A stretch of 64,000 nucleotides of DNA. It comes from Clostridia bacterium (GTDB taxonomy: Bacteria > Bacillota > Clostridia > Saccharofermentanales > UBA5734). Shown one piece after another: positions 12,920 to 50,026 of the stretch; the stretch's first letter is position 1, and each line of letters opens with the position of its first letter. Location: positions 477,635 through 541,634 of the forward strand of contig JAXGXR010000002.1 of NCBI GenBank assembly GCA_040772725.1. Reading direction: 5' to 3'. The notes beneath the pieces are model-generated. The model had not been told where the DNA came from and made no database searches. It was given only the letters and a program-made list of their open reading frames with translations. Both the position numbers and the translations under genes were made by a program.

Positions 12920-13255
12920 ATGTCAAGCGAAACGATTCAGAAACTAATGGAACGGCGCCAGCGGCTTGTTGAAGAGCTGACACAGCATGCTGCCGTGCTG
13001 CACGGAACCTGGGTGGAACGCTACACCGTTTGCACCCGACCCAACTGTGCGTGTCATCGCGGTGAAAAACACGGACCACGTTATCATCTGGCGGTCATGG
13101 AAAACGGCAAACAGCGACAGCACTATATCCGTCTGGCTCAGCGGGAGCAGGCATTGAAGGGGCTGGAGCATAATCGGATCATCGAGGAAATTTTACAGGA
13201 GATCACAAAGATTAACCTCGAGCTCATGAAAGAGGATGCGTATGGAGCGGACTGA
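12920..13255 (+). CDS. IS-associated small protein (DUF6788-like, Cys-rich)
   Basis: 111 aa with a CTRPNCACHRGEKHGPRYHL motif. Overlaps the transposase start by 20 nt. By recollection this arrangement is seen upstream of IS1634-family transposases. Confidence 0.6.
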   Translation: MSSETIQKLMERRQRLVEELTQHAAVLHGTWVERYTVCTRPNCACHRGEKHGPRYHLAVMENGKQRQHYIRLAQREQALKGLEHNRIIEEILQEITKINLELMKEDAYGAD

Positions 13256-14966: not shown

Positions 14967-14982
14967 GGGTGTTGAATGTGGG

Positions 14983-15023
14983 ATCGAAGTCCCTTTTTTA
15001 GCAATAATTCTTGAATGCGTCAT
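14983..15023 (-). pseudogene. Orphaned native 5' end (start codon plus about 13 codons) of the IS-disrupted surface-protein gene
   Basis: Minus strand reads AAAGGAGCGAAACGACC-ATG ACG CAT TCA AGA ATT ATT GCT AAA AAA GGG ACT TCG AT. Joined across the target duplication it continues in frame as MTHSRIIAKKGTSIMISLLIMALSV..., a canonical signal peptide. Confidence 0.8.
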
Positions 15024-15485
15024 GGTCGTTTCGCTCCTTTCGTAGAGTGTCTTGAGCCTTGCTCAAATGTCGAATGATGCTTGAAAGGGAAATAAAAAAG
15101 CACGTTCAATCAAGTGATCGTTTGTGGCTGCTGCTGGCGTATAGTCGCCTGCCGCGGCCCGATCCCTTGATTGTCCATGCCTGTCACCGGTGCTTCCGGT
15201 GTCACGCGATCAACAATTCAAGTGATGATGTATTTTCAAAAACGAACGGTCATTTCTGCTTGCGCAATTACCGATACCGATATTTGAATGATAACATTGT
15301 CAGCGTAAAATATCAATATATTTCTGATGGTTTATTTATACTATACGTATAATGACATCATGTTAAAAGATACATGAACTGAATATGGTCATAAGTGCAT
15401 CAGGGTTATTTCTGGTTTTTCGCCAATCGATTTTCCAACTGTGGATGGATTTCAGCGAGCCACGAATCAGGGTCTGCTAACAGAA

Positions 15486-15932
15486 TCACTCCTCTTTTCT
15501 CGTATGATCTCTGTCGAAAACCTGATTGGCCAATCTCGCAACAGGTCCGCCTTTTTCCGGTGGTTTTTTATCATTTTCATTTTTGGCCACTTCGTCATTT
15601 TGCTCGCAAGCCTTGCGCTCCGTCTTGATCTCCCAGTGGATCAGGATCGCCATGAAAGCTCGCAGGAGGATGATCGATGCCACGATCGCAATCTCAGTCA
15701 TGTCACGGACGATGACCGTGCGGAGAATCTCGCCGGCGAGCTTGAACTCAAGGCTGGTCGCCATGGCCTGAGCAAAGCGTAACCGGATATCAGTCTCGCC
15801 CTTGAGATAACCGTAAAACGAGCGAAATCCGGCGGCCACAATGACGATGATGCCCATCGCTTCCAGGACAATGATGATCACATCGACGATATTGATCAGG
15901 ATACCGGTCACGGACAACCAAAACTCACTCAT
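15486..15932 (-). CDS. Small membrane protein (DUF1622-like)
   Basis: 148 aa with 3-4 hydrophobic helices and a charged C-terminal tail. GGAGG RBS. Confidence 0.6.
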   Translation of the reverse strand: MSEFWLSVTGILINIVDVIIIVLEAMGIIVIVAAGFRSFYGYLKGETDIRLRFAQAMATSLEFKLAGEILRTVIVRDMTEIAIVASIILLRAFMAILIHWEIKTERKACEQNDEVAKNENDKKPPEKGGPVARLANQVFDRDHTRKEE

Positions 15933-15997
15933 GTGCAGGCCTCCGATTTCGCTTATAATAATCCCATTATAGCAAGGATTCGTCAGGAGTACCGTCT

Positions 15998-16408
15998 ATG
16001 AAACAGTTCGACATGCAGTTCCGAGTCCGATACGCCGAAACCGACGCCATGGGCATCGTCCATCACGCCGTCTACCCCGTCTGGTTTGAAATGGGCCGCA
16101 CGGAATACCTGCGGGCGGTCGGCCTGCCCTATCGGGAAATGGAAGAGCGCGGCGTGCAAAGCCCGGTGATCGCGCTGCATGTGCGCTATTTGAAGCCGGC
16201 CCGTTATGACGACCTGCTGACACTGACGGTCAAGGTCACCCGATATACGGGGGTTCGGCTGACGCTGCACTATGAGGTGTACCGGGAAGAGGTACTGCTG
16301 TGCACAGGCGAAAGTGAGCATGCGTTTTTGTGTGCGGGAAAGGCGACGGCCCTGCAAAGGAGCGAGCCGGAGATGCATGCGGTGATGATGGGGTGCGTGG
16401 GGGAGTGA
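15998..16408 (+). CDS. Acyl-CoA thioesterase, YbgC/4HBT hot-dog family
   Basis: N-terminal RVRYAETDAMGIVHHAVYPVWFEMGRTEYL is the YbgC/FadM-type signature with the catalytic Asp. Confidence 0.8.
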   Translation: MKQFDMQFRVRYAETDAMGIVHHAVYPVWFEMGRTEYLRAVGLPYREMEERGVQSPVIALHVRYLKPARYDDLLTLTVKVTRYTGVRLTLHYEVYREEVLLCTGESEHAFLCAGKATALQRSEPEMHAVMMGCVGE

Positions 16409-16464
16409 GGTGGGAGAATTCCAATTCAGTTTCAGGATTATTATTATCGTATATTTGACTATGT

Positions 16465-17466
16465 TTACGGACCACCTATATTTTTCCAGTCACTGACATC
16501 GCATTGGTTATACTGATTATTGCCAACTGCTACGACTGAACCATCGCTCTTCAAACCGACCGTATGATCGTATCCGGCCGATATGGCGATGATATCCTGC
16601 CATGAAGATACGTTACATTGACCGTATTCATTGTTGCCCACAGCAACGATGGTACCATCTTTTTTCAATCCTACAGAATGAAACATACCCCCTGAAATGG
16701 ACACAATATCTGTCCATGTTGAGACATTGCATTGTCCTTCTTTGTTATCACCTGTGGCTAAAACAGATCCATCTGCATTTAGTCCTAAGGTATGGAAAAA
16801 GCCGGCGCTAATGGCCGTCATGTTCTTCCAATCATTTATATTACATTGGCCATACTGATTGTCGCCAGTTGCTATTGCAGCGCCAGAATGGGTCAATGCA
16901 ACTGTGTGAGCATAACCAGCTGAAATGGTAGAAATATTCTTCCAGTTTGACACGTCACATTGAAGATGCTCATTCCAACCCACCGCTACAACGGTTCTAT
17001 CACTTCTTAATCCAACTGTATGGGCAACACCAGCAGCGATCGCAATGGTCTGTTGCCAATCTTCCACATTCAATTGACCATTTTCGTTGTATCCGACTGC
17101 TACTACCGTCCCATCATTCTTCAATCCTAAAATGTGGCCACCACCTGCAGAAACGGATACGATGTCTTTCCAGTTCGGTGTGTTTTTGACATAATGAAAG
17201 CCGACAGCTGACACTGTACCGTCTAATTTACGGCCGATCGACAAACCAACTTTGGCATAACCTCTGGCAGAAATGGCCTGAGGATTGCTGAACACAAAGT
17301 GCTGATTTTGGGGGTTTGAAACAACTGGTGTATTGGATTTATGGATATCACTTGAGCCTATTGTGGTAGATTCCGATTGGACTGTATCTGAACATGATGT
17401 AACCATGAAAATCATAAGAATAAACATTGGGATAAATAGTTGCACAAGTTGTCGATAAATTTTCAT
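16465..17466 (-). CDS. RCC1-like repeat (beta-propeller) lipoprotein
   Basis: Seven or more ~38-aa repeats (ISAG..HTVGLK.DGTVVAVG.N.YGQC.VS.W). Start set at the ATG at 17466 (MKIYRQLVQLFIPMFILMIFMVTSC), giving a signal peptide plus lipobox. Visibly lower GC than its neighbours. Confidence 0.75.
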   Translation of the reverse strand: MKIYRQLVQLFIPMFILMIFMVTSCSDTVQSESTTIGSSDIHKSNTPVVSNPQNQHFVFSNPQAISARGYAKVGLSIGRKLDGTVSAVGFHYVKNTPNWKDIVSVSAGGGHILGLKNDGTVVAVGYNENGQLNVEDWQQTIAIAAGVAHTVGLRSDRTVVAVGWNEHLQCDVSNWKNISTISAGYAHTVALTHSGAAIATGDNQYGQCNINDWKNMTAISAGFFHTLGLNADGSVLATGDNKEGQCNVSTWTDIVSISGGMFHSVGLKKDGTIVAVGNNEYGQCNVSSWQDIIAISAGYDHTVGLKSDGSVVAVGNNQYNQCDVSDWKNIGGP

Positions 17467-17539
17467 ATTTATAGTCATTCCTTTCGCTACGCTCAGGCAC
17501 AAAAAGTCATTAAAATACTGCACCAGGCGTGATATTATT

Positions 17540-19150
17540 GGGGTGGTCCCACAGGTACACTACAGAGCACGGGGAGGTGAGTGCGTCTCCCTCGGGAAGA
17601 CCGCATATTTATATGTGCCGCCCAACCTCGCAAGTACAAATAAGTGTGGCATTGACCACGTAGATTTATCTTTGTATAAACAACTCCCTGTTTATTCCGG
17701 GTCGGGCAGTCACTGCCTGTGTGACCACGATATTATCCCGGAAGGATGTGTTTATGCTTAAGATCGTCTATCCCATCTGCTGTGGCATCGATGTCCACAA
17801 AACCTTTGTGGTGGCAACCATCGCGGCCACAGACAAGAAAAGTATCACAACCTACAAAACCCAACGTTTCTCCACCTTTACCAAGGATCTGAAAAGCCTG
17901 GCGCAGTGGCTCTCGGATCACCAATGCCTGCATGTTTGCATGGAGTCCACCGGCAAGTACTGGATCCCGGTCTACAACATCCTGGAGCCCTCCTGCCGGA
18001 TCACCCTGGCACACCCCAAGTATGTCAAAGCAATCCGGGGCAAGAAGACCGACAAGAAAGACTCGATCTGGATTGCCGACCTGTTCAAGCACGACCTGGT
18101 CCCCGGCAGCTTCATACCCGAGAAGCAAATCCGCGATCTGCGTGAGATTCTCCGCTACCGCTACAAACTGGTGTGCTTTGCGGCCAGTGAGAAGAATCGG
18201 ATGCAGAATTCCCTGACTGTCTCCAACATCCAGTTGGCTTCAGTCGTTTCCGATACCTTTGGTAAAAGTGCTCAGGCCATTATTGCGCATCTGTTGGCGA
18301 ACCCAGGTGATACAGCGTTCGATTTTCGGCCGTTACTGCATGGCTCGATGCGTAAAAACGAAGAGCAGATTGCCTTGGCAATTGAGGGAACTGTTACGCC
18401 TGTCCAGGCCAGCAAGATCCAGACCTGTCAGCAGCATGTCGACCAATTGAGTCAATATATCACCCGTCTCGAATCTCTGGCTGATTCCTTAGCTGCACCC
18501 TTTGCTTCTCTGTTGCTTATTCTCGAGTCGGTTCCGGGTATTTCCCATGTTTCAGCCTTGGTCATTCTGTCGGAAATCGGAACCAATATGGCTCAGTTCA
18601 AGTCGGCGAAGCATCTGACATCCTGGGCCGGATTGGCTCCATCCAACGACCAGAGTGCCGGTAAGAAGAAGTCAACCAAAATCAGTCGGGCTGGGGTTTA
18701 TATCAAGCCAGTTCTGGCCAATGTGCCTTGGCTGCGATTAGTGACAAATCGTTTCCTCATTACCGCCAGCGCTATGAAGCATTAAAGCATCGCCGCGGCC
18801 ATAAGAAAGCGTTGATTGCTATCGCTCGGATGATGTTGACCGCGATTTTTGTCATGCTGACCAATGGTGAACTGTTCAATCCGAAAATGTATGAGGAGTC
18901 TTTGCGCAAACCTGCATACATCCTGTCTCCTGAAATGCAATTGGCTCAATTGGCAAAACGTTTGGGTTATTCGGTTGTCAAGGTTCCTGATCTGATCGAA
19001 TAAGGACTTAATTCAACTTCTCTTCTCGGCCTTCACAAGAAGGTCTGCTTTATCGTGCACTTTGGCATGGTGATCTGACGTTGTTTTTCGTATTATGCAT
19101 TTTCAGATTTATCCCTTTCAAATCTAACATACTGAATTGACGACCCCAAA
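17540..19150 (+). mobile_element. IS110-family element (boundaries not determinable by eye)
   Basis: Contains a DEDD-type IS110 transposase gene preceded by ~200 nt of non-coding sequence. No inverted repeats are expected for this family, so the ends are approximate. Confidence 0.4.
17754..19003 (+). pseudogene. IS110-family transposase, disrupted by a 1-nt deletion near 18717
   Basis: MLKIVYPICCGIDVHKTFVV...MESTGKYWIPVYNIL is the IS110 DEDD N-terminal domain. The reading frame changes between the ORFs 17721-18785 and 18728-19003. The second ORF (AAISDKSFPHYRQRYEALKHRRGHKKALIAIARMML) is the normal C-terminus of the same protein. Confidence 0.8.
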
Positions 19151-19187
19151 TTCACGTCTCCCTTTCGACCTATGTCTATTATATCAA

Positions 19188-19221
19188 GAATGGAGCCACC
19201 GCCGAAGCGATGGCCCCATTC
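19188..19221 (-). terminator. Hairpin downstream of the giant surface-protein gene (GAATGGGGCCATCGC-TTCG-GCGGTGGCTCCATTC on the minus strand)
   Basis: 15-bp stem with two mismatches or wobbles, about 30 nt after the stop. The U-tract is weak (TTGATAT). Confidence 0.45.
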
Positions 19222-19249
19222 TCAGAGAATCAGATGTTTTTCTGAGTAA

Positions 19250-22200
19250 TCAATCTGGATAGTCGCAATACATACGTACATCTGCATGTGCTGCAATCCA
19301 GATATTGTCAGTTGTCTTGACATCGCTAAATGTATAGACAACAGTATCTTGGTCCACCCGCTCCATTGTGAAGCTATACTTGATGTATTTTTCGAGCTGA
19401 CCCGGACTATTGATATACTTTTTGCCTTTCTTCGGCAACTTATCTTTTCCGACCCATAGATGGGTTGCCAACAGATCGTTGCAGAAGGAAGTATTGAAGG
19501 TGATCGTTAATGTAGTGCCTGTTCTGACTACATGCAAAGTACCAACGTCAAATCCCTTAGTGAGATCTTCTTGCGCAGCACCTGCATAGAGTACCCAGGT
19601 TTCATCAATGTCACCGGTTCCGATGTCATTTGTCCATCCCCAGTTATTGGATTGCAAATCAGCCAATGTAGTGAATCTGGTTGCCCGAGCGCCACCGTAT
19701 GCCCATGCCGTCTCATCGTGATAGACAAGGGTATTGATGATGGTGCCGATGGCACCGGCGGCAGGCTCAGTACCGGCCACGACAGTCAGGACACGGTTGG
19801 TCGGGTTGTAGGCGGGTGTCCAGCCGGTGACGGTAACCTCCGAGAAGGTGTAGTCGCCAGGGACCAGGCCGCATACGATATCGTCCCAGCCATTGCCTTC
19901 GTTAAGCGTGACGGAACCGGTGTAGCCATAAGGACCGGTGATGTTGACGGTGACAGAGGCTGGCAGCGGGTATCCTGCGGGATAGCCCGTGAAAGACTTG
20001 ACGATCTTCAGGCAGCCCTTGTCGAGGGTGTTGGTGATGGTGCCGATGGCACCGGCGGCAGGCTCAGTACCGGCCACGACAGTCAGGACACGGTTGGTCG
20101 GGTTGTAGGCGGGTGTCCAGCCGGTGACGGTAACCTCCGAGAAGGTGTAGTCGCCAGGGACCAGGCCGCATACGATATCGTCCCAGCCATTGCCTTCGTT
20201 AAGCGTGACGGAACCGGTGTAGCCATAAGGACCGGTGATGTTGACGGTGACAGAGGCTGGCAGCGGGTATCCTGCGGGATAGCCCGTGAAAGACTTGACG
20301 ATCTTCAGGCAGCCCTTGTCGAGGGTGTTGGTGATGGTGCCGATGGCACCGGCGGCAGGCTCAGTACCGGCCACGACAGTCAGGACACGGTTGGTCGGGT
20401 TGTAGGCGGGTGTCCAGCCGGTGACGGTAACCTCCGAGAAGGTGTAGTCGCCAGGGACCAGGCCGCATACGATATCGTCCCAGCCATTGCCTTCGTTAAG
20501 CGTGACGGAACCGGTGTAGCCATAAGGACCGGTGATGTTGACGGTGACAGAGGCTGGCAGCGGGTATCCTGCGGGATAGCCCGTGAAAGACTTGACGATC
20601 TTCAGGCAGCCCTTGTCGAGGGTGTTGGTGATGGTGCCGATGGCACCGGCGGCAGGCTCAGTACCGGCCACGACAGTCAGGACACGGTTGGTCGGGTTGT
20701 AGGCGGGTGTCCAGCCGGTGACGGTAACCTCCGAGAAGGTGTAGTCGCCAGGGACCAGGCCGCATACGATATCGTCCCAGCCATTGCCTTCGTTAAGCGT
20801 GACGGAACCGGTGTAGCCATAAGGACCGGTGATGTTGACGGTGACAGAGGCTGGCAGCGGGTATCCTGCGGGATAGCCCGTGAAAGACTTGACGATCTTC
20901 AGGCAGCCCTTGTCGAGGGTGTTGGTGATGGTGCCGATGGCACCGGCGGCAGGCTCAGTACCGGCCACGACAGTCAGGACACGGTTGGTCGGGTTGTAGG
21001 CGGGTGTCCAGCCGGTGACGGTAACCTCCGAGAAGGTGTAGTCGCCAGGGACCAGGCCGCATACGATATCGTCCCAGCCATTGCCTTCGTTAAGCGTGAC
21101 GGAACCGGTGTAGCCATAAGGACCGGTGATGTTGACGGTGACAGAGGCTGGCAGCGGGTATCCTGCGGGATAGCCCGTGAAAGACTTGACGATCTTCAGG
21201 CAGCCCTTGTCGAGGGTGTTGGTGATGGTGCCGATGGCACCGGCGGCAGGCTCAGTACCGGCCACGACAGTCAGGACACGGTTGGTCGGGTTGTAGGCGG
21301 GTGTCCAGCCGGTGACGGTAACCTCCGAGAAGGTGTAGTCGCCAGGGACCAGGCCGCATACGATATCGTCCCAGCCATTGCCTTCGTTAAGCGTGACGGA
21401 ACCGGTGTAGCCATAAGGACCGGTGATGTTGACGGTGACAGAGGCTGGCAGCGGGTATCCTGCGGGATAGCCCGTGAAAGACTTGACGATCTTCAGGCAG
21501 CCCTTGTCGAGGGTGTTGGTGATGGTGCCGATGGCACCGGCGGCAGGCTCAGTACCGGCCACGACAGTCAGGACACGGTTGGTCGGGTTGTAGGCGGGTG
21601 TCCAGCCGGTGACGGTAACCTCCGAGAAGGTGTAGTCGCCAGGGACCAGGCCGCATACGATATCGTCCCAGCCATTGCCTTCGTTAAGCGTGACGGAACC
21701 GGTGTAGCCATAAGGACCGGTGATGTTGACGGTGACAGAGGCTGGCAGCGGGTATCCTGCGGGATAGCCCGTGAAAGACTTGACGATCTTCAGGCAGCCC
21801 TTGTCGAGGGTGTTGGTGATGGTGCCGATGGCACCGGCGGCAGGCTCAGTACCGGCCACGACAGTCAGGACACGGTTGGTCGGGTTGTAGGCGGGTGTCC
21901 AGCCGGTGACGGTAACCTCCGAGAAGGTGTAGTCGCCAGGGACCAGGCCGCATACGATATCGTCCCAGCCATTGCCTTCGTTAAGCGTGACGGAACCGGT
22001 GTAGCCATAAGGACCGGTGATGTTGACGGTGACAGAGGCTGGCAGCGGGTATCCTGCGGGATAGCCCGTGAAAGACTTGACGATCTTCAGGCAGCCCTTG
22101 TCGAGGGTGTTGGTGATGGTGCCGATGGCACCGGCGGCAGGCTCAGTACCGGCCACGACAGTCAGGACACGGTTGGTCGGGTTGTAGGCGGGTGTCCAGC

Positions 22201-23683
22201 CGGTGACGGTAACCTCCGAGAAGGTGTAGTCGCCAGGGACCAGGCCGCATACGATATCGTCCCAGCCATTGCCTTCGTTAAGCGTGACGGAACCGGTGTA
22301 GCCATAAGGACCGGTGATGTTGACGGTGACAGAGGCTGGCAGCGGGTATCCTGCGGGATAGCCCGTGAAAGACTTGACGATCTTCAGGCAGCCCTTGTCG
22401 AGGGTGTTGGTGATGGTGCCGATGGCACCGGCGGCAGGCTCAGTACCGGCCACGACAGTCAGGACACGGTTGGTCGGGTTGTAGGCGGGTGTCCAGCCGG
22501 TGACGGTAACCTCCGAGAAGGTGTAGTCGCCAGGGACCAGGCCGCATACGATATCGTCCCAGCCATTGCCTTCGTTAAGCGTGACGGAACCGGTGTAGCC
22601 ATAAGGACCGGTGATGTTGACGGTGACAGAGGCTGGCAGCGGGTATCCTGCGGGATAGCCCGTGAAGGACTTGACGATCTTCAGGCAGCCCTTGTCGAGG
22701 GTGTTGGTGATGGTTAAATCTACATTCTGCTCTGCAATAACAGTTACTGGGCCACTATTGCTGACGGTCGTCCAGCCTTCTACATCTCGCTCAGTGGCTG
22801 TATATAGACCGGGCTCTAGATCGCAGATCTGTACCGACCAGCTATTCCCACTGTTTAGAACGACCGTAGTAGAAAATTCGTTTGGACCACTAACATCAAC
22901 TGTTACTTCTGGTAACGTAAAGCCTTCTGGATATCCACTGAATGCCTTCTTGATTGTCAAGCATCCAGTCTCGTATACCTCAACACCCCATTCTTCAAAG
23001 CCGTCATTTGTGTCATTGTGCTCTGTAAAGAGAACTACAAAAATACCGTCTTTTCCGTTGAACTTTGTTTGAGGTACCAATACCCTGTATTCACGTTTAC
23101 CACTTCCATCGTTGTATAAAAGTTTTAGGGTGGTTCCAGCTGTGTCATATACCAAATCAGCGTCAGGAAGTGTATAGGAAGCTAGCGAGTATCCAGTTGG
23201 GCTTTGAATATCTGTAACCCATACCTGAAAACGAGTCAAATAAATTGAATCGTCATTTTCGTTGATATCTAGCTGAAACTCCCTATACGCGACACCTCCA
23301 ACATAAATAGTTGGTACATCAGCCAACAACTGAGAATCTGTGAAACTATCCTTTTCGTCAAAGTAGGGGGTTTGATCGCCATTATGGCCTCTCTCACTAC
23401 CAGTCGCTTGTACCCGTAGGAAAGAATCAAATACACCCGTACCAGTAGCACTTGTATGAGGCACCAGGTTCTCCCAGATAGCTCCATTGACGGTTGCTGT
23501 TGATCCGGGTGTCATGAGATCAACTTCAGCTGCAAATACACCCGTCGATGACAACGCAAAAACCGCCATCACAATGATGGTGACAATCATGCTTCGCCAA
23601 AGACGGCTTGAGGTCTTGGTTACGTTCACTTTACATCCCTTTCTTTCTTCTAGTGCGCCGATCGATTTGCGCACTTTGTTCAT
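19250..23683 (-). CDS. Giant secreted repeat protein: signal peptide, N-terminal domain, 1 diverged plus 10 identical Cna-B-like 99-aa domains, and a conserved C-terminal domain
   Basis: 1,477-aa ORF. Signal peptide is SMIVTIIVMAVFALSSTGVFA. No LPXTG, SLH or choline-binding anchor was seen. A GTG at 23629, preceded by AAGGGA, is an alternative start; the ATG at 23683 lacks an obvious RBS. Confidence 0.85.
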   Translation of the reverse strand: MNKVRKSIGALEERKGCKVNVTKTSSRLWRSMIVTIIVMAVFALSSTGVFAAEVDLMTPGSTATVNGAIWENLVPHTSATGTGVFDSFLRVQATGSERGHNGDQTPYFDEKDSFTDSQLLADVPTIYVGGVAYREFQLDINENDDSIYLTRFQVWVTDIQSPTGYSLASYTLPDADLVYDTAGTTLKLLYNDGSGKREYRVLVPQTKFNGKDGIFVVLFTEHNDTNDGFEEWGVEVYETGCLTIKKAFSGYPEGFTLPEVTVDVSGPNEFSTTVVLNSGNSWSVQICDLEPGLYTATERDVEGWTTVSNSGPVTVIAEQNVDLTITNTLDKGCLKIVKSFTGYPAGYPLPASVTVNITGPYGYTGSVTLNEGNGWDDIVCGLVPGDYTFSEVTVTGWTPAYNPTNRVLTVVAGTEPAAGAIGTITNTLDKGCLKIVKSFTGYPAGYPLPASVTVNITGPYGYTGSVTLNEGNGWDDIVCGLVPGDYTFSEVTVTGWTPAYNPTNRVLTVVAGTEPAAGAIGTITNTLDKGCLKIVKSFTGYPAGYPLPASVTVNITGPYGYTGSVTLNEGNGWDDIVCGLVPGDYTFSEVTVTGWTPAYNPTNRVLTVVAGTEPAAGAIGTITNTLDKGCLKIVKSFTGYPAGYPLPASVTVNITGPYGYTGSVTLNEGNGWDDIVCGLVPGDYTFSEVTVTGWTPAYNPTNRVLTVVAGTEPAAGAIGTITNTLDKGCLKIVKSFTGYPAGYPLPASVTVNITGPYGYTGSVTLNEGNGWDDIVCGLVPGDYTFSEVTVTGWTPAYNPTNRVLTVVAGTEPAAGAIGTITNTLDKGCLKIVKSFTGYPAGYPLPASVTVNITGPYGYTGSVTLNEGNGWDDIVCGLVPGDYTFSEVTVTGWTPAYNPTNRVLTVVAGTEPAAGAIGTITNTLDKGCLKIVKSFTGYPAGYPLPASVTVNITGPYGYTGSVTLNEGNGWDDIVCGLVPGDYTFSEVTVTGWTPAYNPTNRVLTVVAGTEPAAGAIGTITNTLDKGCLKIVKSFTGYPAGYPLPASVTVNITGPYGYTGSVTLNEGNGWDDIVCGLVPGDYTFSEVTVTGWTPAYNPTNRVLTVVAGTEPAAGAIGTITNTLDKGCLKIVKSFTGYPAGYPLPASVTVNITGPYGYTGSVTLNEGNGWDDIVCGLVPGDYTFSEVTVTGWTPAYNPTNRVLTVVAGTEPAAGAIGTITNTLDKGCLKIVKSFTGYPAGYPLPASVTVNITGPYGYTGSVTLNEGNGWDDIVCGLVPGDYTFSEVTVTGWTPAYNPTNRVLTVVAGTEPAAGAIGTIINTLVYHDETAWAYGGARATRFTTLADLQSNNWGWTNDIGTGDIDETWVLYAGAAQEDLTKGFDVGTLHVVRTGTTLTITFNTSFCNDLLATHLWVGKDKLPKKGKKYINSPGQLEKYIKYSFTMERVDQDTVVYTFSDVKTTDNIWIAAHADVRMYCDYPD
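19741..22711 (-). repeat. Ten head-to-tail 297-bp coding repeats, essentially 100 percent identical
   Basis: The string TGCCGATGGC recurs at 19744, 20041, 20338 ... 22417, a period of 297. Both the sense and the antisense ORF translations are periodic and identical. The only interior difference noticed is a synonymous G/A at 22667. Confidence 0.95.
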
Positions 23684-23831
23684 ACCAAGAAAGGCATCTA
23701 TCGAACTTTTATCACTTGCTTACTGCATTCCAATCCGTTTCTGTTGTCTGCGTCCAATGATGCTGCACTGCGGTCCGATGAGCCAAATCAAGTGTCGATC
23801 CTCCAGTCCACATCACCCCCAAAACAAATAC

Positions 23832-23925
23832 AAAAACCGACCACAATGGGTCGGTTACGCTACTCGCTCCGGTCTGACCAAGCGTCCAGATACGGTCAAA
23901 CCCTCCTTGCACCCCGAAGGCTATT
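23832..23925 (-). ncRNA. c-di-GMP-II-like riboswitch aptamer plus intrinsic terminator (proximal copy)
   Basis: Minus strand: GGGGTGCAAGGAGGGTTTGACCGTATCTGGACGCTTGGTCAGACCGGAGCGAGTAGCGTAACCGACCCATTGTGGTCGGTTTTT. The core TGGACGC...GAGCGAGTAGCGTAACCGACC resembles, as I recall it, the c-di-GMP-II consensus (UGGGCAC...AGUAGUGCAACCGACC). The AACCGACC/GGTCGGTT stem plus U-tract forms the terminator. Confidence 0.65.
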
Positions 23926-24184
23926 CAGTTTTTGCCAAGGCTGGTTGTTCGAGTCTGTTTTCCGCTTTTTCTACCGCTTGCTCCCGCTCGTGGGGCGAAC
24001 CATGTTATGGGAGCGGCCGGGGTAACTGTCTATCTGTTTCATAGACGAAAAACCTTTGCCGCCACCGGCTGCAACCCCGTTAAACGGGGCAAGTCACCCA
24101 TTATAAAGACGCCAATAACGGCCGGGATCACCAATTTCTCAATAAATACCTGACCGTTTTTGCTGTCTTCGGGTTTAAAACAAT

Positions 24185-24270
24185 AAAACCGACCCGAAGG
24201 CCGGTTACGCTACTCGCTCTTGTCTGACCAAAGCGTCCAATCACAGTCAGACCATCATCGCATCCTGGCT
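24185..24270 (-). ncRNA. c-di-GMP-II-like riboswitch aptamer plus intrinsic terminator (distal copy)
   Basis: Minus strand: GGATGCGATGATGGTCTGACTGTGATTGGACGCTTTGGTCAGACAAGAGCGAGTAGCGTAACCGGCCTTCGGGTCGGTTTT. Same conserved core as the proximal copy. Stem positions show compensatory differences (GTCTGAC/GTCAGAC versus GTTTGACC/GGTCAGAC; ACCGGCC/GGTCGGT versus AACCGACC/GGTCGGTT). Confidence 0.65.
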
Positions 24271-24344
24271 ATACTTTTATGAATTTTCACAAAATATTTC
24301 GATTGCTTCATGCGTTATTTGATAACTTTGTCCTTACATAATCT

Positions 24345-24353
24345 ATTATAACA
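24345..24353 (-). promoter_or_regulatory. Candidate extended -10 promoter element (TGTTATAAT) for the riboswitch-led transcript
   Basis: Minus strand reads GGGTGTTATAATAGA about 75 nt upstream of the distal aptamer, in an AT-rich region. No good -35 was found. Confidence 0.35.
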
Positions 24354-24562
24354 CCCGTTTGTCATCTGATTGTAAAATAATAATGAATAACTAAATGAAT
24401 ATTGCCTATCTATATTCAACATATGTGCAATTTCGCATTTGTCACGAAATTTAAAAAATTAGTCATGATATTTGTCATCAAAACCTGGCCGTCACCGGAT
24501 CTGATTCGACAATTTCACTGTTTGACCACTGGTTCTGTACGATTTCACGCATACATGATTTC

Positions 24563-25474
24563 ATGCATAATAGAAGCATCAAAGGGAGGGGGTCAGCGCC
24601 AATCGATCAGGATCCGGACATCGTCTGGCTGGATGAGCAACTCGAGCGACGAGAACGGCTGCGTAGGCAATTGGTTCGTGTTATCGCCCTGGTGCTGGTC
24701 ATCGCGTTCATTCCGCTGGCGCTCAGCGGCGTGCTCTATCTGTTCGGCCTGCCATCGTTGCGGTTGCTGATCGAATCCCGCGAGTTGTCCAATGACCCGG
24801 CTTACAGTGCCCTCCGCTCAGCAGTCGTAGCAGTCCGTGCTGATCAGCGTCAGGGGACCGGGTTTGCGATACGAATGAATGATGAATCAGAAAGCGCCCC
24901 GCCATTGGCAGGAGGGGAAACCGCAAACCTGGAGGATACAAAGATCGTCATCCTCACCAATGACCACATCATCGGCGATGCCGAAAACGTCCAGGTCAGT
25001 TTGAAAGCTGACGATTTTCAACCCGTAAACGAGTGGCTGCAGTGGCCGCAGTCTGATCTGGCCATGATCTTATTGCCGCAACTTGACCTGCCCGCCGCCT
25101 TTTCAAAGCTGACAACGCTGACCCTGGCAGACAGTGCTGCCGAACCCGAGCCCGGCGACCCGCTCATCGTTATCGGCAATCCGCTCAATCTGTTCCAGAT
25201 CACGACCGAGGCCACATTCATTGGGCAGACCACATTATCCGGTATCAGCGGACCGGTCCTGATGATCAAAGGCCCTGTCTTTCGTGGTAATAGCGGAAGC
25301 CCGGTGATCGATGCGGAAAACCAGGTGATCGGCATGGTTTTTGCCGTCGCGGACACGGATCAGGCTGACCAGGGTGGCTTGCTGACCCGCGGCAGCATCC
25401 TGACCGCCGCCCAGGACCGGATCGCGTTCCTGATACCAGCCACGACGATCTGGGAGCAGGTGAACGAGCCGTAG
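24563..25474 (+). CDS. Membrane-anchored trypsin-like (S1C/HtrA-like) serine protease
   Basis: N-terminal TM helix (VIALVLVIAFIPLALSGVLYLF), catalytic Ser motif GNSGSPVID, and a His region NDHIIGD. The start codon is uncertain because no clear RBS precedes 24563. Confidence 0.7.
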   Translation: MHNRSIKGRGSAPIDQDPDIVWLDEQLERRERLRRQLVRVIALVLVIAFIPLALSGVLYLFGLPSLRLLIESRELSNDPAYSALRSAVVAVRADQRQGTGFAIRMNDESESAPPLAGGETANLEDTKIVILTNDHIIGDAENVQVSLKADDFQPVNEWLQWPQSDLAMILLPQLDLPAAFSKLTTLTLADSAAEPEPGDPLIVIGNPLNLFQITTEATFIGQTTLSGISGPVLMIKGPVFRGNSGSPVIDAENQVIGMVFAVADTDQADQGGLLTRGSILTAAQDRIAFLIPATTIWEQVNEP

Positions 25475-25794
25475 AAGACAAGAATATTAGCCCTGGATTT
25501 CCACCACGACATTCACGTGCCACCTCCAACATCCGTTTTCTGCCCGCCAACTGGTTTTCCCCGGAAGATTCATTAAAATAATATGAAACCGACCGGCAGG
25601 CTCCATAAGGTCGCCAGTTTTTTTACGCCACTCGATTAGTTTCATCCGGCTCAAACCCTCGTCAAAATGACGTAGAATCAAGCCTTGGCGGGGTTTCGTC
25701 TTGACGATATCAACCAAATGGAATAGGCTGGACATAGACCTGAAACTAAAATTTGATATTCAATTGATTCATCATATGAAGGGAGACCACGATC

Positions 25795-26199
25795 ATGGCG
25801 AAACTGAGCGTTGTGGAAGGCATTGGCGAATCCTATGAAGGCAAATTGAAAGAAGCAGGAATCACGTCCCTCGAAGCATTCCTCGAGCAATGCGCGACCA
25901 AGAAGAACCGGGCTGAACTGGCTGAGAAGACAGGCATTTCCGAGAAACTGATCCTGAAGTGGGTCAACCACGCCGACCTGATGCGCATCAAGGGCATTGG
26001 CGGTGAATATTCCGAACTGCTGGAAGCCGCCGGCGTCGACACCGTGCCCGAGCTGGCCAACCGCAAGCCGGAAAACCTCTTCGCTAAAATGGTCGAGGTC
26101 AACACCGAGAAAAAACTCGTCCGCAAGCTCCCCGTCGAGAAGCAGGTCGCCGGCTGGGTCGCCCAGGCCAAAGAACTGCCCAGAAAGCTCACCTACTGA
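25795..26199 (+). CDS. DUF4332-like helix-hairpin-helix protein
   Basis: 134 aa with two HhH-like repeats (VEGIGESYEGKLKEAGI; IKGIGGEYSELLEAAGV). GGGAGA RBS. Followed by a terminator. Confidence 0.65.
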   Translation: MAKLSVVEGIGESYEGKLKEAGITSLEAFLEQCATKKNRAELAEKTGISEKLILKWVNHADLMRIKGIGGEYSELLEAAGVDTVPELANRKPENLFAKMVEVNTEKKLVRKLPVEKQVAGWVAQAKELPRKLTY

Positions 26200-26242
26200 G
26201 TTTTCATCTCATGACGCTTAAATGAAATCCAAGAACAAACAG

Positions 26243-26274
26243 GACCGGCCGATAGCAAAAGGCCGGTCTTTTGT
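26243..26274 (+). terminator. Intrinsic terminator (GACCGGCC-loop-GGCCGGTC-TTTT)
   Basis: Perfect 8-bp GC stem followed by a T-tract, 45 nt after the stop codon. Confidence 0.7.
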
Positions 26275-26564
26275 TTGGTGCGCCACGTATGGAGTATGCC
26301 CGGCACTGCCCACTACGAGTTCCGCTCGGGTGCCTGGCACCGCCAAGCGCGCACCCTGGCACCTTAACGGAACTTGCCAGCCCTGGCCGCAGTCTAATCA
26401 CCAAACCTTCACCTGACAAGCACATACACGCACTTAACAAATGTCCCGATTTGTGGAATAATGGCTGTGTCGTTCAACAAAACCGCGCTTATCAGTTGAT
26501 CTGAAAAATATTTAGCACAATTAAGGCCCAAAGGCCGATCAAACCGGATGGAGCCCCCCTTGAC

Positions 26565-29500
26565 ATGCCAAATCGCAAAACCTTGACCCGCATATTGACT
26601 GTGATCCTCTGCCTGTCATTCGCACTGAGTGGCTGCAGTCACTTTGCCGATAACTGGACCAAGCCGATCGGCGTGACCGAAACGACGGCCAAGCAAACGA
26701 CCACTCAGTCTGGCCAGACCACAGCCCCGGCCCAGAAGACGCTGGTGATCTCCGAGGTCATGAGCAACAATGTCGGATCGCTCACCCTGCAGGACGGCAC
26801 GACACCTGACTGGATCGAACTGTACAACGCCGGTGACAAGGCCGTCAGCCTGACGGGGTACATGCTTTCGGACAACACCAAGAGACCGGATAAATATGTC
26901 TTCAAGACCGGCACCGTCCAGCCGGGCGCGGCCCTGCTGCTCTACGCTGGCGCGACGGATGAGGAAACGACCGGCGGCTCTACGCAAACCGGCGCGATCC
27001 AACTGCCGTTCGGCATCAGCAGCGCGGGCGAAGAACTGATCCTGACCGCACCGGACGGCAATGTCGCGGACCAGTGGACCATACCGGCCCTGCCGCCAGA
27101 CATCGCGTTTGGCATCCAGGGTCAAGACATAACATCTTCAGCCTCAAAAGTGTTTTTTGGCCACCCGACTCCCGGCAAGCCCAACGGCACTGATGGCAAG
27201 GCGACGGCGGATGCCGCGATCATCCCGGCGATCACGAGCTTGTTGATCAACGAGTATTGCACGCGCAACGCATCCTTTTATGATGAGGCCGGCGACTATC
27301 CGGATTGGGTCGAGTTGTACAACAGCGGTGACCAGCCACTCGACCTGAGCGGCTATTATCTCTCGGACGACCTGGCCAATCCGGAAAAATGGCAGTTCCC
27401 CCAGACCATTCTGGAGCCCAAATCCTACTTGCTTCTGATGCTCGGCGGAAAGATCCCGGGCACAGCAGACACTGAAGAGCCGCCCGCGACTGAAGGGCGC
27501 CTCCGGGTCGACTTCAGGCTTGGCACAGACGATACAAACCTGTTGATCAGCGACACCCGTGGCCGCACCGTCGCCAGCACTGAACTCGAGCACCTGCCGC
27601 TGAACGTCTCCAAAGGCCGCCTTCCGGACGATCCGGAAACGTGGGGCTATTTCCCCAAGGCGACGCCGGGCCAGCCGAACACGACCGTTTCGTTCCCGAC
27701 CCTGGCCCTGGCCAACTCACAGGCGAGCCGCACACTTTTCATCAGCGAGGTCTTCGCCCAGGATGGTGTCAACACCGCAACCCCTGTAAAAGACTGGATC
27801 GAGCTGTACAACAACACCAACGAAGTCATCAACCTGTCGGGTTATGGCCTGAGTGACAGCAGCAACGATCCGTTCCGGCTGACTTTGGCCGACCTGACGA
27901 TCAATTCCAAAAGCACGGTGGCCGTCGAACCGGACACTTTTTCCATATCGGCCGGTGGGGAGACGATCCTGCTGACCAACCCGGCCGGCATCATCGAGGA
28001 CGCGTTCGCGACCGGCTACCTGAGGCCCGGCGCCAGCAGCGGCCGCCAGATCCAGGCAGACGGAGCAGGCGGCCTGGACCGTTTTTTTTATTTGACCCCG
28101 ATGAAAAACGAGGTCAATACATCAACGGCGTATCGGACCTATACATCCATGCCGGAAATTTCAGCCAGGACTGAGACGAATAGCGAAACGTCAGACAATC
28201 TCTATATCAACGGCCCGGTCCAGGTCTCGATCGAGACGGCCATGCCGGACGCGAAAATTTACTATACGCTGGACGGGCGGACCCCCACGGCCGGTTCCAC
28301 CCGCTACCAGGGTACGTTTCGTGTCGACCGCTCACTGGTCGTTCGGGCGGTCGCCATCGCTCCGGCCTGCCTGCCGAGCGATGTCACCAGCCGGACCTTT
28401 CTCAAGGAAACCCCGCACACCCTGCCGGTCGTCAGCCTCACCGGCAATCCGGCCCAGCTGACCGGGGCAGCCGAGGGGATTCTCGCCAGTCAGACATCGA
28501 CTGCGGAGATGCCGGCGACGTTTGCCTTCTATGAAACGGATGGCCGTCTGGGCATCGACTTCAACGTCGGCCTGCAGCTGCACGGCCAGTTCAGCAAACG
28601 GGAGGACCAGAAGTCGCTCGAGGTGAAGATCCGCTCCTCCTACGGCGACAGTGAAGTGACCTATCCGTTTTTCGAGGACTACGATGTGTCGACCTTCAAG
28701 CGGCTCATCCTGCGCACCTCCGGACAGGACTGGAAGATGACCAAGGTGCGCGACGCGTTCATGACCCGGGTGGTCATGGGCCATGTCGAGCTGGACTGCA
28801 TGGCGATCCGCAACTGTATCCTCTACGTCAACGGGGAGTATTACGGTCTCTATGAAATCCGCGAAAAACTCGACCAGTTCTACGCCGCCTCGCACTTCGG
28901 CGTCGACCCGGACAAGGTCGACCTGATCAAAGGCACCTCGGCTGTCGTGTCCGGCAGCAACGCTGACTACAAGGAACTGATCGCCTACACCAAAGCGCAC
29001 AGTATGAACGACCCGGTCGCCTACAAGAGGGTCCTCGACTGGGTGGACGAAGAGAGCCTGATGGACTTTGTCATCGTCCAGTCGTTCTTCAGCAATCCCG
29101 ACTCGGGCAACAAGAAATTCTGGCGCCCGGCTGTCGAGGGCGGTGAGTACCGATACATGTTGTTCGACCTCGACTGGGCGATGTTCCCGTCAACCTACGA
29201 GCGCGACCGCCTCAAGGGCGACCTGCTCGACCCGGCCGGCCACGGCCAGGGCAATTTCTTCAGCACGACCCTGCAAGTCAAGCTGATGGAAAATCCCGAA
29301 TTCGAGAAAAAATTCGTCGAGCGTTACGCCAATTTCCTCAACACGATTTTCGAGACGGACCGGATGCTTCGGATCCTGGATGAGAGTGTCGCGATCGTCG
29401 AGCCGGAGATGGCGCGCCAGATCGCCCGCTGGGGCCAGCCGTCAAGCATCAACTCCTGGAAGAACATGGTGGGTACGCTGCGCCGGATCACCAGTGAAAA

Positions 29501-29588
29501 GCGGGATCTGATGATCGCCAGCCTGCAACAGAATTTCAATTTGAGCCAGTCGCGGATGAAAGAGCTGTTTCCGGAGGATTTCCGATGA
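26565..29588 (+). CDS. CotH-family atypical kinase lipoprotein with three lamin-tail (LTD) domains and a chitobiase/hexosaminidase-C-like domain
   Basis: Signal peptide plus lipobox (LSFALSGC). Three LTD repeats (ISEVMSNN...DWIELYN, INEYCTRN...DWVELYN, ISEVFAQD...DWIELYN). AKIYYTLDGRTP motif. C-terminal CotH region (LILRTSGQDW, LYVNGEYYGLYEIREK, KKFWRP). Confidence 0.8.
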   Translation: MPNRKTLTRILTVILCLSFALSGCSHFADNWTKPIGVTETTAKQTTTQSGQTTAPAQKTLVISEVMSNNVGSLTLQDGTTPDWIELYNAGDKAVSLTGYMLSDNTKRPDKYVFKTGTVQPGAALLLYAGATDEETTGGSTQTGAIQLPFGISSAGEELILTAPDGNVADQWTIPALPPDIAFGIQGQDITSSASKVFFGHPTPGKPNGTDGKATADAAIIPAITSLLINEYCTRNASFYDEAGDYPDWVELYNSGDQPLDLSGYYLSDDLANPEKWQFPQTILEPKSYLLLMLGGKIPGTADTEEPPATEGRLRVDFRLGTDDTNLLISDTRGRTVASTELEHLPLNVSKGRLPDDPETWGYFPKATPGQPNTTVSFPTLALANSQASRTLFISEVFAQDGVNTATPVKDWIELYNNTNEVINLSGYGLSDSSNDPFRLTLADLTINSKSTVAVEPDTFSISAGGETILLTNPAGIIEDAFATGYLRPGASSGRQIQADGAGGLDRFFYLTPMKNEVNTSTAYRTYTSMPEISARTETNSETSDNLYINGPVQVSIETAMPDAKIYYTLDGRTPTAGSTRYQGTFRVDRSLVVRAVAIAPACLPSDVTSRTFLKETPHTLPVVSLTGNPAQLTGAAEGILASQTSTAEMPATFAFYETDGRLGIDFNVGLQLHGQFSKREDQKSLEVKIRSSYGDSEVTYPFFEDYDVSTFKRLILRTSGQDWKMTKVRDAFMTRVVMGHVELDCMAIRNCILYVNGEYYGLYEIREKLDQFYAASHFGVDPDKVDLIKGTSAVVSGSNADYKELIAYTKAHSMNDPVAYKRVLDWVDEESLMDFVIVQSFFSNPDSGNKKFWRPAVEGGEYRYMLFDLDWAMFPSTYERDRLKGDLLDPAGHGQGNFFSTTLQVKLMENPEFEKKFVERYANFLNTIFETDRMLRILDESVAIVEPEMARQIARWGQPSSINSWKNMVGTLRRITSEKRDLMIASLQQNFNLSQSRMKELFPEDFR

Positions 29589-30535
29589 AAAAGCATGACC
29601 GCCCGCCGCAAGAACTCGCTCGCAAACCTGCGCCCGTGCATCATCCTGCTGACCAGACGACCGCGCCGTCCCCGGAGCCAAGCGTGGTGATCCCGGATAC
29701 GCTGCGCTCCGCGCCGGTCCGGCAGAAACACGGCAAGCCGATCGAGCGGCCGCAGAAAATCTGGCGTCATGAGGACAAATATCTGCTGGACGAGTATTCG
29801 TTCACCCGGCTTTACTGGCAGCTTCGGCCATTTGTCGGGCTCGACCGGCATGCCGAGACGGACGGATGGCTGGGTGATCCGGCAGGCCTCGATGAGATCC
29901 CGGGTCTCGCGACCGACGCCCAGTATCCCGGCTACCAGGTCAAAAGCCTCTACTTTGACACGATCGGCCGGCACGGCCTCTTTGAAAAGCTGGCCGGCAT
30001 CGACCAGCGGTTCAAATACCGTGTCCGCATTTATAATAATGGTGATCATGTCATCCACCTCGAGAAAAAGATGAAACGCAACCAGTACTGCCTCAAGAGC
30101 AGTATCCCGATCTCCCGGTCGCAACTGGATGCGTTGCTGGCCGGCGATGCGGAATGGCTGCTCGAGGCCGGCCCACCGGGCACGGACCTGTATACGGAGA
30201 TGCGGACCCGCCTGATGAAACCGCTCGTCCTGGTCGACTATCACCGGATCCCGCTGATCTGGCCGGCTGACGAGATCCGCATCACCTTTGACAGCCACCT
30301 CTCGACCGGACTGTTCCGGACCGACCTGTTCGAGGAACACGCGGCGATGCACCCGGTGCTGTCACCCGGCCAGGTGATCCTTGAGGTGAAATACAACCAC
30401 TTCCTGCCCGATTTTTTAAACGCGCTGCTCTCCCAATCCGGCGCGATGCCCGTCTCCCTGAGCAAATACGCCATGTGCTGCCGCGAGATCAGCTTTGCCA
30501 GCTGGTCCGACCCGCAGGACACCCTGGATGATTGA
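29585..30535 (+). CDS. VTC-domain (polyphosphate polymerase catalytic tunnel domain) protein
   Basis: The start overlaps the cotH stop (ATGA). HEDKYLL...VKSLYFDT...RVRIY...LEKK...LEVKY pattern of alternating basic and acidic beta-strands is typical of VTC/CYTH tunnel domains. Confidence 0.7.
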   Translation: MKKHDRPPQELARKPAPVHHPADQTTAPSPEPSVVIPDTLRSAPVRQKHGKPIERPQKIWRHEDKYLLDEYSFTRLYWQLRPFVGLDRHAETDGWLGDPAGLDEIPGLATDAQYPGYQVKSLYFDTIGRHGLFEKLAGIDQRFKYRVRIYNNGDHVIHLEKKMKRNQYCLKSSIPISRSQLDALLAGDAEWLLEAGPPGTDLYTEMRTRLMKPLVLVDYHRIPLIWPADEIRITFDSHLSTGLFRTDLFEEHAAMHPVLSPGQVILEVKYNHFLPDFLNALLSQSGAMPVSLSKYAMCCREISFASWSDPQDTLDD

Positions 30536-30571
30536 TCACGCGACAACGCGAACGAGAAAGGAACCAAACGG

Positions 30572-31225
30572 ATGAAAGACTTGCTGCAGAAATTGGTCGA
30601 TGTCGACATCAACCAGCCCCTGACCTATGAGCGGATTTTCCTGACCTTCACTGTGACCTTCTTCATGGGCCTCCTGATCCTTCTGATCTACCGGCTGACC
30701 TACAAAGGGGTGCTGTTCAACCGGACTTTCGGCACGTCGCTCCTGATGGTGTCGATGGTCACGTCGCTGGTCATCATGCCGATCAGTTCCAACATTGTCC
30801 TGTCGCTCGGCATGGTCGGCGCCCTGTCGATCGTGCGTTTCCGGACCGCGCTCAAGGATCCGCTCGACATCGTCTACATGTTCTGGGCGATCGCGCTTGG
30901 ACTGACGGCCGGTGCCGGGTTCTTTGAACTGGCGGTCATCGGCTGCGTTCTTCTGGCGATCATCATGGTGGTGGTGACGGCCATTTCCCAGTATGGCCTG
31001 AAGCGGCCCTATCTTCTGGTCATCCGCTACAGCCCGATGTTCCGCGGCGAGTTCTCCCAGTTCATACCCCCTTACAAAGTCAAGAGCAAGACCGTGACTC
31101 CGCAGGCCATCGAGCTGGTGGTCGAACTGACCCTGAAAAATCAGGACAGCCGTTTCCTCGACCGTCTGCAGCAGATGGACGGCATCCTGTCCGCATCCCT
31201 GGTCCGCTACAGCGGTGATTTCTGA
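30572..31225 (+). CDS. DUF4956-like small polytopic membrane protein
   Basis: Four hydrophobic helices including the MVGALSIVRFRTALKDPLDIVYMFWAIALGLTAGAG signature, then a soluble C-terminal domain. By recollection this gene co-occurs with CotH and VTC genes. Confidence 0.65.
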   Translation: MKDLLQKLVDVDINQPLTYERIFLTFTVTFFMGLLILLIYRLTYKGVLFNRTFGTSLLMVSMVTSLVIMPISSNIVLSLGMVGALSIVRFRTALKDPLDIVYMFWAIALGLTAGAGFFELAVIGCVLLAIIMVVVTAISQYGLKRPYLLVIRYSPMFRGEFSQFIPPYKVKSKTVTPQAIELVVELTLKNQDSRFLDRLQQMDGILSASLVRYSGDF

Positions 31226-50007: not shown

Positions 50008-50026
50008 TCCGCAAAGGAGCGATAGA

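Follow-up and report, generated by a model that had tools for sequence, protein, structure and literature searches.

Introduction

The cyclic diguanylate (c-di-GMP)-II riboswitch (RF01786; Lee et al. 2010), represented in the PDB by the Clostridium acetobutylicum aptamer 3Q3Z, consists of the helices P1, P1b, and P2 and a pseudoknot that joins the P2 loop to the 3′ tail. In Clostridioides difficile, switches of this class are uniformly ON switches controlling adhesins and type IV pili (PMC6200980), and Cdi-2-1 to Cdi-2-4 raise the transcript levels of these genes as c-di-GMP increases (McKee et al. 2018, PMC6200980). Tandem arrangements are also known, with 59 doublets and nine triplets described, most of them ahead of a surface-anchor gene in Paraclostridium and related bacteria (Sherlock et al. 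2022, PMC9481103), and a sharpened response has been proposed for tandem riboswitches generally (PMC9481103). For the c-di-GMP-I class, a triple-tandem switch was shown experimentally to exert more stringent, digital control (Bc3-5 of Bacillus thuringiensis; Zhou et al. 2016, PMC4759541). Here, we analyse a 64-kb stretch of contig JAXGXR010000002.1 (referred to as the window) from an uncultured member of the Clostridia, in which two elements resembling c-di-GMP-II aptamers lie in the 5′ leader of a gene for a 1459-amino acid (aa) secreted protein. We consider it likely that this leader carries two complete riboswitches of the c-di-GMP-II class in series, each consisting of an aptamer and its own intrinsic terminator.

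The elements share with the described c-di-GMP-II riboswitches the P1-P1b-P2 architecture, the pseudoknot between P2 loop and 3′ tail, the AACCG pocket, a host from the class Clostridia, and a terminator that extends over the 3′ strand of the aptamer. They differ in the pseudoknot itself, which is formed by GGACGC and GCGU instead of GGGCAC and GUGC and thus contains two compensated pairs. As in the Paraclostridium-type doublets and triplets upstream of COG4932 genes (Sherlock et al. 2022, PMC9481103), the units are complete, belong to the same class, have their own expression platforms, and precede a surface-protein gene; both aptamers are located with their terminators in a single leader on the strand of the gene, as in tandem riboswitches with multiple expression platforms. 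In contrast to those tandems, the units occur in an uncultured digester member of the Clostridia that has cellulosome-type genes, the spacer between them is longer (350 nucleotides (nt) between the cores), and the encoded protein has no detected sortase signal or COG4932-type domain, its head domain being uncharacterised. The C. difficile switches Cdi-2-1 to Cdi-2-4 are single units that were tested experimentally, whereas the window has two units identified computationally. The likeness to Bc3-5 lies in the serial arrangement of complete c-di-GMP switches, as its aptamer is of class I (GEMM), with a fold unrelated to that of the class II aptamers of the window.

An initial annotation of this stretch, made without database searches, had proposed the tandem pair and rated its novelty highly. 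This rating was too high, because c-di-GMP-II doublets and triplets ahead of surface-anchor genes have already been published (PMC9481103). The identification itself is correct and changes nothing in how such switches are understood. It adds the case of a surface protein, very large and rich in repeats, that is predicted to be controlled by c-di-GMP in an uncultured, cellulosome-type host of the class Clostridia from anaerobic digesters, where attachment and granule or biofilm formation matter.

Identification of the two aptamers

The two elements of ~83 nt each are found on the same strand as the open reading frame (ORF) encoding the 1459-aa protein and lie entirely within its leader (Table 1). 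Copy 1 reads ...AGGAUGCGAUGAUGGUCUGACUGUGAUUGGACGCUUUGGUCAGACAAGAGCGAGUAGCGUAACCGGCC-UUCG-GGUCGGUUUUAUUGUUUU on the minus strand and copy 2 ...GGGGUGCAAGGAGGGUUUGACCGUAUCUGGACGCUUGGUCAGACCGGAGCGAGUAGCGUAACCGACC-CAUUGU-GGUCGGUUUUUGUAUUUGUUUU, and their common core is TGGACGCTT(T)GGTCAGAC-NN-GAGCGAGTAGCGTAACCG. With 81% identity over 84 nt (23914-23833 vs. 24265-24185), they constitute the sole repeat in the leader, and the motif AGTNGNGNAACCGNCC occurs twice in the window where 100 shuffles lead to an expectation of zero. An unfiltered model search of positions 22800-25200 revealed no third, degenerate copy, and no protein family is matched by the ORFs on the opposite, plus strand (23487-24044, 23744-24025, and 24402-24770). 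Four DNA samples from a single anaerobic-digester study were assembled independently, and in each case contigs cover both copies with zero differences, which rules out a tandem created by misassembly.

RF01786 is the best Rfam match of both copies, with all 84 model positions aligned and scores of 51.3 bits (E-value 3.2e-10) for copy 2 and 46.9 bits (E-value 5.5e-9) for copy 1, and the other members of its clan score lower on both. The covariance model R1, derived from 91 aptamers found in other genomes and in metagenomes with the window excluded, leads to the same assignment: it recognises exactly two sites in the 64 kb (74.3 and 73.8 bits, E-values 4e-21 and 6e-21), with scores that fall within the 42-82 bit range of the family itself, and each copy fits the model with at most one non-standard pair. 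In an RNAalifold analysis of the 91 foreign sequences, compensatory changes are present in 10 of the 12 pairs of the nested helices P1, P1b, and P2, and 92.5%-94% of the positions per helix are paired in 67 aligned sequences. Two further Rfam matches in the leader were rejected, one to STnc240, explained by its resemblance to a terminator, and one to a trypanosomatid mitochondrial rRNA, attributed to chance similarity of AT-rich sequence.

The class II assignment made in the initial annotation is thus borne out, and so are the placement of two elements ~350 nt apart on the minus strand, the shared core, which matches the sequence exactly, and the short hairpin with U-tract after each element, which a terminator scan recovers with eight pairs each. 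Two other statements were right in part. The differences between the copies had been taken as a sign of a structured RNA; they do preserve base pairing, but only by one-sided changes (C-G to U.G, G.U to A-U), which is not true covariation, and the genuine covariation evidence comes from other genomes and not from comparing the two copies. The search with RF01786 that had been suggested as a check, with a lack of significant matches as the refuting outcome, gives matches that are significant by E-value, but nothing at the gathering threshold, where the whole window returns zero Rfam matches.

These sub-threshold scores are the only observation in favour of a chance resemblance or a non-functional repeat. 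Such an explanation is effectively refuted by E-values between 1e-9 and 1e-21, by the zero occurrences expected from shuffling, by the presence of such an aptamer at a related gene as well, and by the position of both sites ahead of a gene on the same strand, each with a terminator.

The pseudoknot and the ligand pocket

The RF01786 consensus combines the loop UGGGCAC with the tail GUGCAACCG, whereas both window copies have UGGACGC and GCGUAACCG. Compared with the consensus pseudoknot GGGCAC/GUGCAACC, the window pseudoknot GGACGC/GCGUAACC differs in two base pairs that are fully compensated, as G40:C68 is replaced by A:U and A42:U66 by G:C. The complementarity of the P2 loop GGACGC to GCGU-AA-CC can be read directly from both copies.

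The same exchange is present outside the window. A scan of one genome per species for GAGCNAGTNGCGTAACCG yielded more than 119 loci, and nearly all real matches listed have GGACGC in the P2 loop; the matches listed include genomes of Clostridia, Peptococcaceae, Syntrophomonas, Chloroflexota, Actinomycetota, and Patescibacteria. A metagenome scan in which positions 66, 68, and 69 were left free recovered several Watson-Crick loop/tail combinations (GGUCAC/GUGA, GGGCAC/GUGC, GGGCGC/GCGC, GGUCGC/GCGA, GGACGC/GCGU, and GGACAC/GUGU), with the GGACGC/GCGU type of the window accounting for ~6% of the sample. When sequences were filtered by structure only, each of the two pairs was Watson-Crick in 36 of 46 cases, compared to 18.5 and 21.5 in shuffles. 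For a formal count, 67 sequences (65 from the metagenome scan) were aligned to a model without the pseudoknot. In this alignment, the pseudoknot helix is 99.2% paired, with pair 40:68 occurring as U:A (n = 35), G:C (n = 21), or A:U (n = 5) and pair 42:66 as A:U (n = 31) or G:C (n = 30). Over the whole structure, 95.1% of the cells are paired vs. 71.0% in shuffles, and the covariation score of 0.624 (0.18 in shuffles) was not attained by any of 500 shuffles. Because pairs 40:68 and 42:66 covary in foreign aptamers, the pseudoknot of the window copies is a minority but regular type.

This pseudoknot type is also present in Patescibacteria genomes of the candidate phyla radiation (loci L020, 975-1925, L031, L035, and L025). 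One of these cases is a triplet in a Komeilibacteria genome, and some copies in this set have an extra hairpin after GGACGCUU.

The nucleotides that bind the ligand in PDB 3Q3Z, as listed in a review, include U37, G39, U60, A61, C68-G73, and A74. Our comparison covered those from U37 to A74. Both window copies contain U37, G39, A61, A69, A70, C71, C72, and G73, and the pocket segment AACCG is intact in both, while positions 60 and 74 (U60 and A74 in 3Q3Z) are variable across the family.

It is very improbable that the elements have the c-di-GMP-II fold but recognise a different ligand, with A40:U68 instead of G40:C68 as the pocket-adjacent pair. C68 is on the list of ligand-contacting nucleotides, and variants of the fold with changes at positions 68 and 69 form Rfam families of their own (RF03169, c-di-GMP-II-GAG, and, judging by its name, c-di-GMP-II-GCG). 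However, these variants have G69, whereas the window copies keep A69 and A70, and position 68 covaries with position 40 across the family. In addition, aptamers of this pseudoknot type at other loci score above the RF01786 threshold, and the genes behind this type, encoding surface proteins and a GGDEF protein, are of the kinds found downstream of classical c-di-GMP-II switches. We therefore infer that c-di-GMP is the ligand of both units.

The relation to the GAG variants deserves a closer look, as some relatives with the pseudoknot type of the window score above the RF01786 threshold (L020 with 76.2, L044 with 58.9, and L083 with 57.3 bits) and others are assigned to RF03169. The consensus of this family (GGuCGC...GGCGAGACCG) shows the same fold and has the pseudoknot pair G42:C66 in common with the window. 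Its hallmark, as read from the consensus, is G69 (GGCGAGACCG), whereas the window copies keep A69 (GCGUAACCG); the c-di-GMP-II-GCG family presumably has G69 too, an assumption we base on its name. Both window copies score higher on RF01786 than on the GAG or GCG models and stay below the RF03169 gathering score of 40 bits. A69 in both copies and the better RF01786 score speak against membership in either variant family. In an Anaerolineae contig (L117), a tandem pair at 1539-1874 is assigned to c-di-GMP-II-GAG though it reads GCGUAACCG (A69), and a c-di-GMP-I-GGC variant (4968-5058) is located 3 kb from it. Rfam clan competition can mislabel A69 aptamers with long P2 inserts.

Since position 68 borders the ligand pocket, the A40:U68/G42:C66 pseudoknot could tune affinity or kinetics, and since the copies differ at position 74 (G vs. 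A), in the junction nucleotides, and in P1 strength, they could respond at different c-di-GMP thresholds. We regard a two-step or band-setting sensor of this kind as a speculative and rather unlikely extension of the tandem riboswitch.

Predicted mode of action

Each of the two terminator hairpins has eight pairs, five of them G-C, and a U-rich tail, and the minimum-free-energy fold of each unit without ligand includes its terminator. The sequence AACCGRCC serves as the terminator 5′ arm in both units and is at the same time the pocket (A69-G73) and the 3′ strand of P1. This double use of the aptamer 3′ strand had already been recognised in the initial annotation and holds for both copies. Under a strict criterion, the terminator 5′ arm starts in ACCGNN in 70 of 167 collected family members.

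Because the terminator 5′ arm is the aptamer 3′ strand, ligand binding should block termination, which would make both units ON switches. Without ligand, AACCGRCC would pair with GGUCGGUU and the terminator would form, causing RNA polymerase to stop first near 24180 and next near 23825. With c-di-GMP, AACCG would be held in the pseudoknot and the ligand pocket and the following CC(U/C) in P1, so that the terminator would be blocked and transcription would read through. The expectation that class II ON switches drive adhesins and pili in clostridia, also voiced at the outset, agrees with the work on C. difficile (PMC6200980). A full-length mRNA would need read-through at both units; since both terminators have to be passed, the serial pair would be less leaky and respond more steeply, with a lowered basal expression and a sharpened c-di-GMP response as in published 'pseudo-cooperative' tandems. 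Production of the adhesin-like protein would then be confined to high c-di-GMP.

This serial action presupposes transcription of both units from one promoter, for which a candidate with an overlapping extended -10 element is located upstream of aptamer 1 (Table 1). The predicted transcription start lies near 24335, about 65 nt ahead of aptamer 1. Alternatively, a second promoter in the ~250-nt spacer or downstream of unit 2 could place the gene under the control of one switch or none. The spacer indeed contains a perfect TATAAT (24105-24100), and the RNA contigs from metatranscriptomes end at 23777, short of either aptamer. Yet, the TATAAT has neither a usable -35 box nor a TG extension and was not called by the promoter scan, no promoter-like site is present between 23825 and 23777, and the end of the contigs is uninformative on the transcription start because the RNA word depth is only ~3.7, making a second promoter quite improbable. 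The spacer has no Rfam match and shows no sequence conservation in the ortholog L240, a locus described below; its predicted fold is somewhat better than those of shuffled sequences (z = -2.4; equalled in 6 of 200 shuffles).

Several observations weigh against two functional c-di-GMP-II riboswitches in series. Both copies stay 2-7 bits below the curated RF01786 gathering score (51.3 and 46.9 vs. 53.5 bits). Part of this deficit arises because covariance models, which are unable to represent pseudoknots, treat the compensated pseudoknot pairs as mismatches in four conserved columns. The ligand-contacting position 68 is U instead of C in both copies, compensated by A40. Copy 1 has a weak P1 (3 bp, a 2-nt bulge, and 2 bp), and the Rfam alignment flags several non-canonical P1 pairs in both copies. 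Copy 2 is off-consensus at the junction, with G for A after P1 and AAGGAG for GAUGAA, two variants that are both present in other members of the 91-sequence alignment. Furthermore, the metatranscriptome contigs do not reach the riboswitch region, although at their low depth this is uninformative, and no diguanylate cyclase or phosphodiesterase gene was found in the window, which is likewise uninformative for a 64-kb piece.

Some of these features would also fit a leader in which just one unit works and the other is a decaying duplicate, contributing no more than constitutive partial termination or an inert piece of leader. The non-consensus junction nucleotides of copy 2 and the weak P1 of copy 1 point in this direction, as does the single copy at L240, which itself deviates at conserved positions (GAUCA, UAGC, AAU). 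In contrast, the window copies score alike on R1 (74.3 and 73.8 bits), and both retain the pseudoknot, the pocket, and an intact terminator. Despite 19% divergence, all P2, pseudoknot, and terminator pairings are still possible, and tandem copies are common in the family, with two to three aptamers at 13 of the 70 aptamer-bearing loci collected. A single working unit is thus unlikely, and two complete switches remain the preferred interpretation. A default Rfam run misses a genuine riboswitch pair, and sub-threshold RF01786 matches with GGACGC...GCGUAACCG are worth rescuing.

Table 1. Features of the riboswitch leader and the downstream gene in window coordinates, in the direction of transcription
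Feature	Position	Strand	Basis or detail
Candidate leader promoter	24338..24365	-	ATGACA-16 nt-GATTAT (consensus scan)
Candidate extended -10 overlapping the promoter, TGTTATAAT	24353-24345	-	sequence reading
Aptamer 1, c-di-GMP-II class	24190..24272	-	RF01786 46.9 bits, E 5.5e-9; R1 73.8 bits, E 6e-21
Aptamer 1, helix P1	AGG 24266-24264 with CCU 24200-24198		
Aptamer 1, helix P1b	UGC 24262-24260 with GCG 24217-24215		
Aptamer 1, junction GAUGA	24259-24255		
Aptamer 1, helix P2	24252-24245 with 24229-24222		
Aptamer 1, pseudoknot 5′ strand (P2 loop GGACGC)	24233..24238	-	pairs with GCGU..CC 24210-24203
Aptamer 1, pseudoknot 3′ strand and pocket GCGU-AA-CC	24203..24210	-	crystal-structure positions 65-72
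Terminator 1, AACCGGCC-UUCG-GGUCGGUU then UUAUUGUUUU	24177..24206 (hairpin 24206-24187)	-	scan, -11.9 kcal/mol
Spacer between units, ~250 nt	about 23929..24176	-	Rfam, shuffle fold, ortholog comparison
Aptamer 2, c-di-GMP-II class	23840..23921	-	RF01786 51.3 bits, E 3.2e-10; R1 74.3 bits, E 4.1e-21
Aptamer 2, helix P1	GGG 23915-23913 with CCC 23850-23848		
Aptamer 2, helix P1b	UGC 23911-23909 with GCG 23867-23865		
Aptamer 2, junction AAGGAG	23908-23903		
Aptamer 2, helix P2	23902-23894 with 23879-23871		
Aptamer 2, pseudoknot 5′ strand GGACGC	23882..23887	-	pairs with GCGU..CC 23860-23853
Aptamer 2, pseudoknot 3′ strand and pocket GCGU-AA-CC	23853..23860	-	sequence read and family covariation
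Terminator 2, AACCGACC-CAUUGU-GGUCGGUU then UUUGUAUUUG	23825..23856 (hairpin 23856-23835)	-	scan, -11.6 kcal/mol
Rest of 5′ untranslated region (UTR)	23630..23824	-	ribosome-binding site AGGGA 23640-23636
Regulated gene, 1459-aa secreted protein	19250..23629	-	likely start GTG 23629; ORF open from ATG 23683
Ten near-perfect tandem 297-bp repeats in the gene	19728..22714	-	Tandem Repeats Finder: 10.1 copies, 99% matches

The regulated gene and its relatives

The 1459-aa protein consists of a signal peptide, a head domain of ~200 aa, 12 repeats, and a C-terminal domain of ~160 aa. The repeats span ~99 aa each and contain a Cys pair; ten of the 12 are near-identical in their DNA. Searches against Pfam and NCBIfam returned no meaningful family, only spurious low-complexity matches, and the 297-bp repeat, corresponding to the ~99-aa domain, has no curated family match. 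One of the two divergent repeats weakly resembles DUF5979 (E-value 0.015) and Cna_B (E-value 0.14). The head domain is modelled as a confident beta-sandwich (predicted local distance difference test score (pLDDT) of 84.8) and is found in just 26 database clusters; a fold search gave weak jelly-roll or GH12-like matches with template modelling (TM) scores of about 0.2, none of which is a convincing structural relative. To regard the protein as adhesin-like is a reasonable inference. The copy number of the 297-bp repeats may be unstable, or the repeats may be mis-assembled in short-read data.

Surface proteins also predominate downstream of 71 aptamers with this pseudoknot type, where we found SpaA (n = 7), SdrD_B (n = 5), and SLH (n = 3) domains as well as CWB2, Ig-like, DUF11, thioester, and WxL domains and one GGDEF protein.

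Among named proteins, the head domain is closest (58% identity) to one from Firmicutes bacterium GWF2_51_9 (locus L240). The gene for this relative is likewise preceded by a single aptamer of this type plus terminator, situated about 470 nt ahead of the gene start. The region of the ribosome-binding site and start codon is also similar (23648-23630, 95% identical to L240 3928-3945), and no conservation between the two leaders was detected outside this region and the aptamer. The L240 aptamer (3441-3532) departs from the family at otherwise invariant positions (GAUCA for GAUGA, UAGC for GAGC, and AAU for AGU) and may be weakened or inactive, judging from these substitutions. At two further homolog loci, L241 and L242, the upstream region lacks an aptamer.

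Contigs from three metatranscriptome runs cover parts of the 5′ coding region of the gene, and in one run they extend into the 5′ UTR up to 23777 (positions 23340-23777 covered), ending ~50 nt short of terminator 2 on its downstream side. Within the region examined (23300-31000), none of the neighbouring genes from 23800 on has a metatranscriptome contig. The regulated gene appears to be one of few in this part of the genome with transcription in situ.

Genomic context

The host is a member of the Clostridia; the best named matches of its PcrA (60%-63% identity) come from Saccharofermentanales, Eubacteriales, and Oscillospiraceae genomes. The regulated gene lies in a stretch of lower guanine-cytosine (GC) content (13236-26000; 0.48-0.51 vs. 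0.56-0.61 in most of the flanking sequence), which also encodes an IS110-family transposase (17721-18785), a DUF4277 protein (13236-14966), and an RCC1-repeat protein (16465-17523). This stretch looks like an acquired island.

A second surface-type protein with DUF5979, SpaA, and Y_Y_Y matches is encoded on the minus strand at 10752-12821 and a PKD-domain protein on the plus strand at 8197-10611; no c-di-GMP-II aptamer was found upstream of either gene. A CotH kinase-like protein with three lamin-tail domains adjoins a VTC-domain protein, and dockerin and cadherin-like proteins are encoded in the same parts of the window (26565-30535 and 47671-51547), in addition to an RsgI-type anti-sigma factor (3477-4598). 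Together, these genes point to a cellulosome-type lifestyle of this organism.

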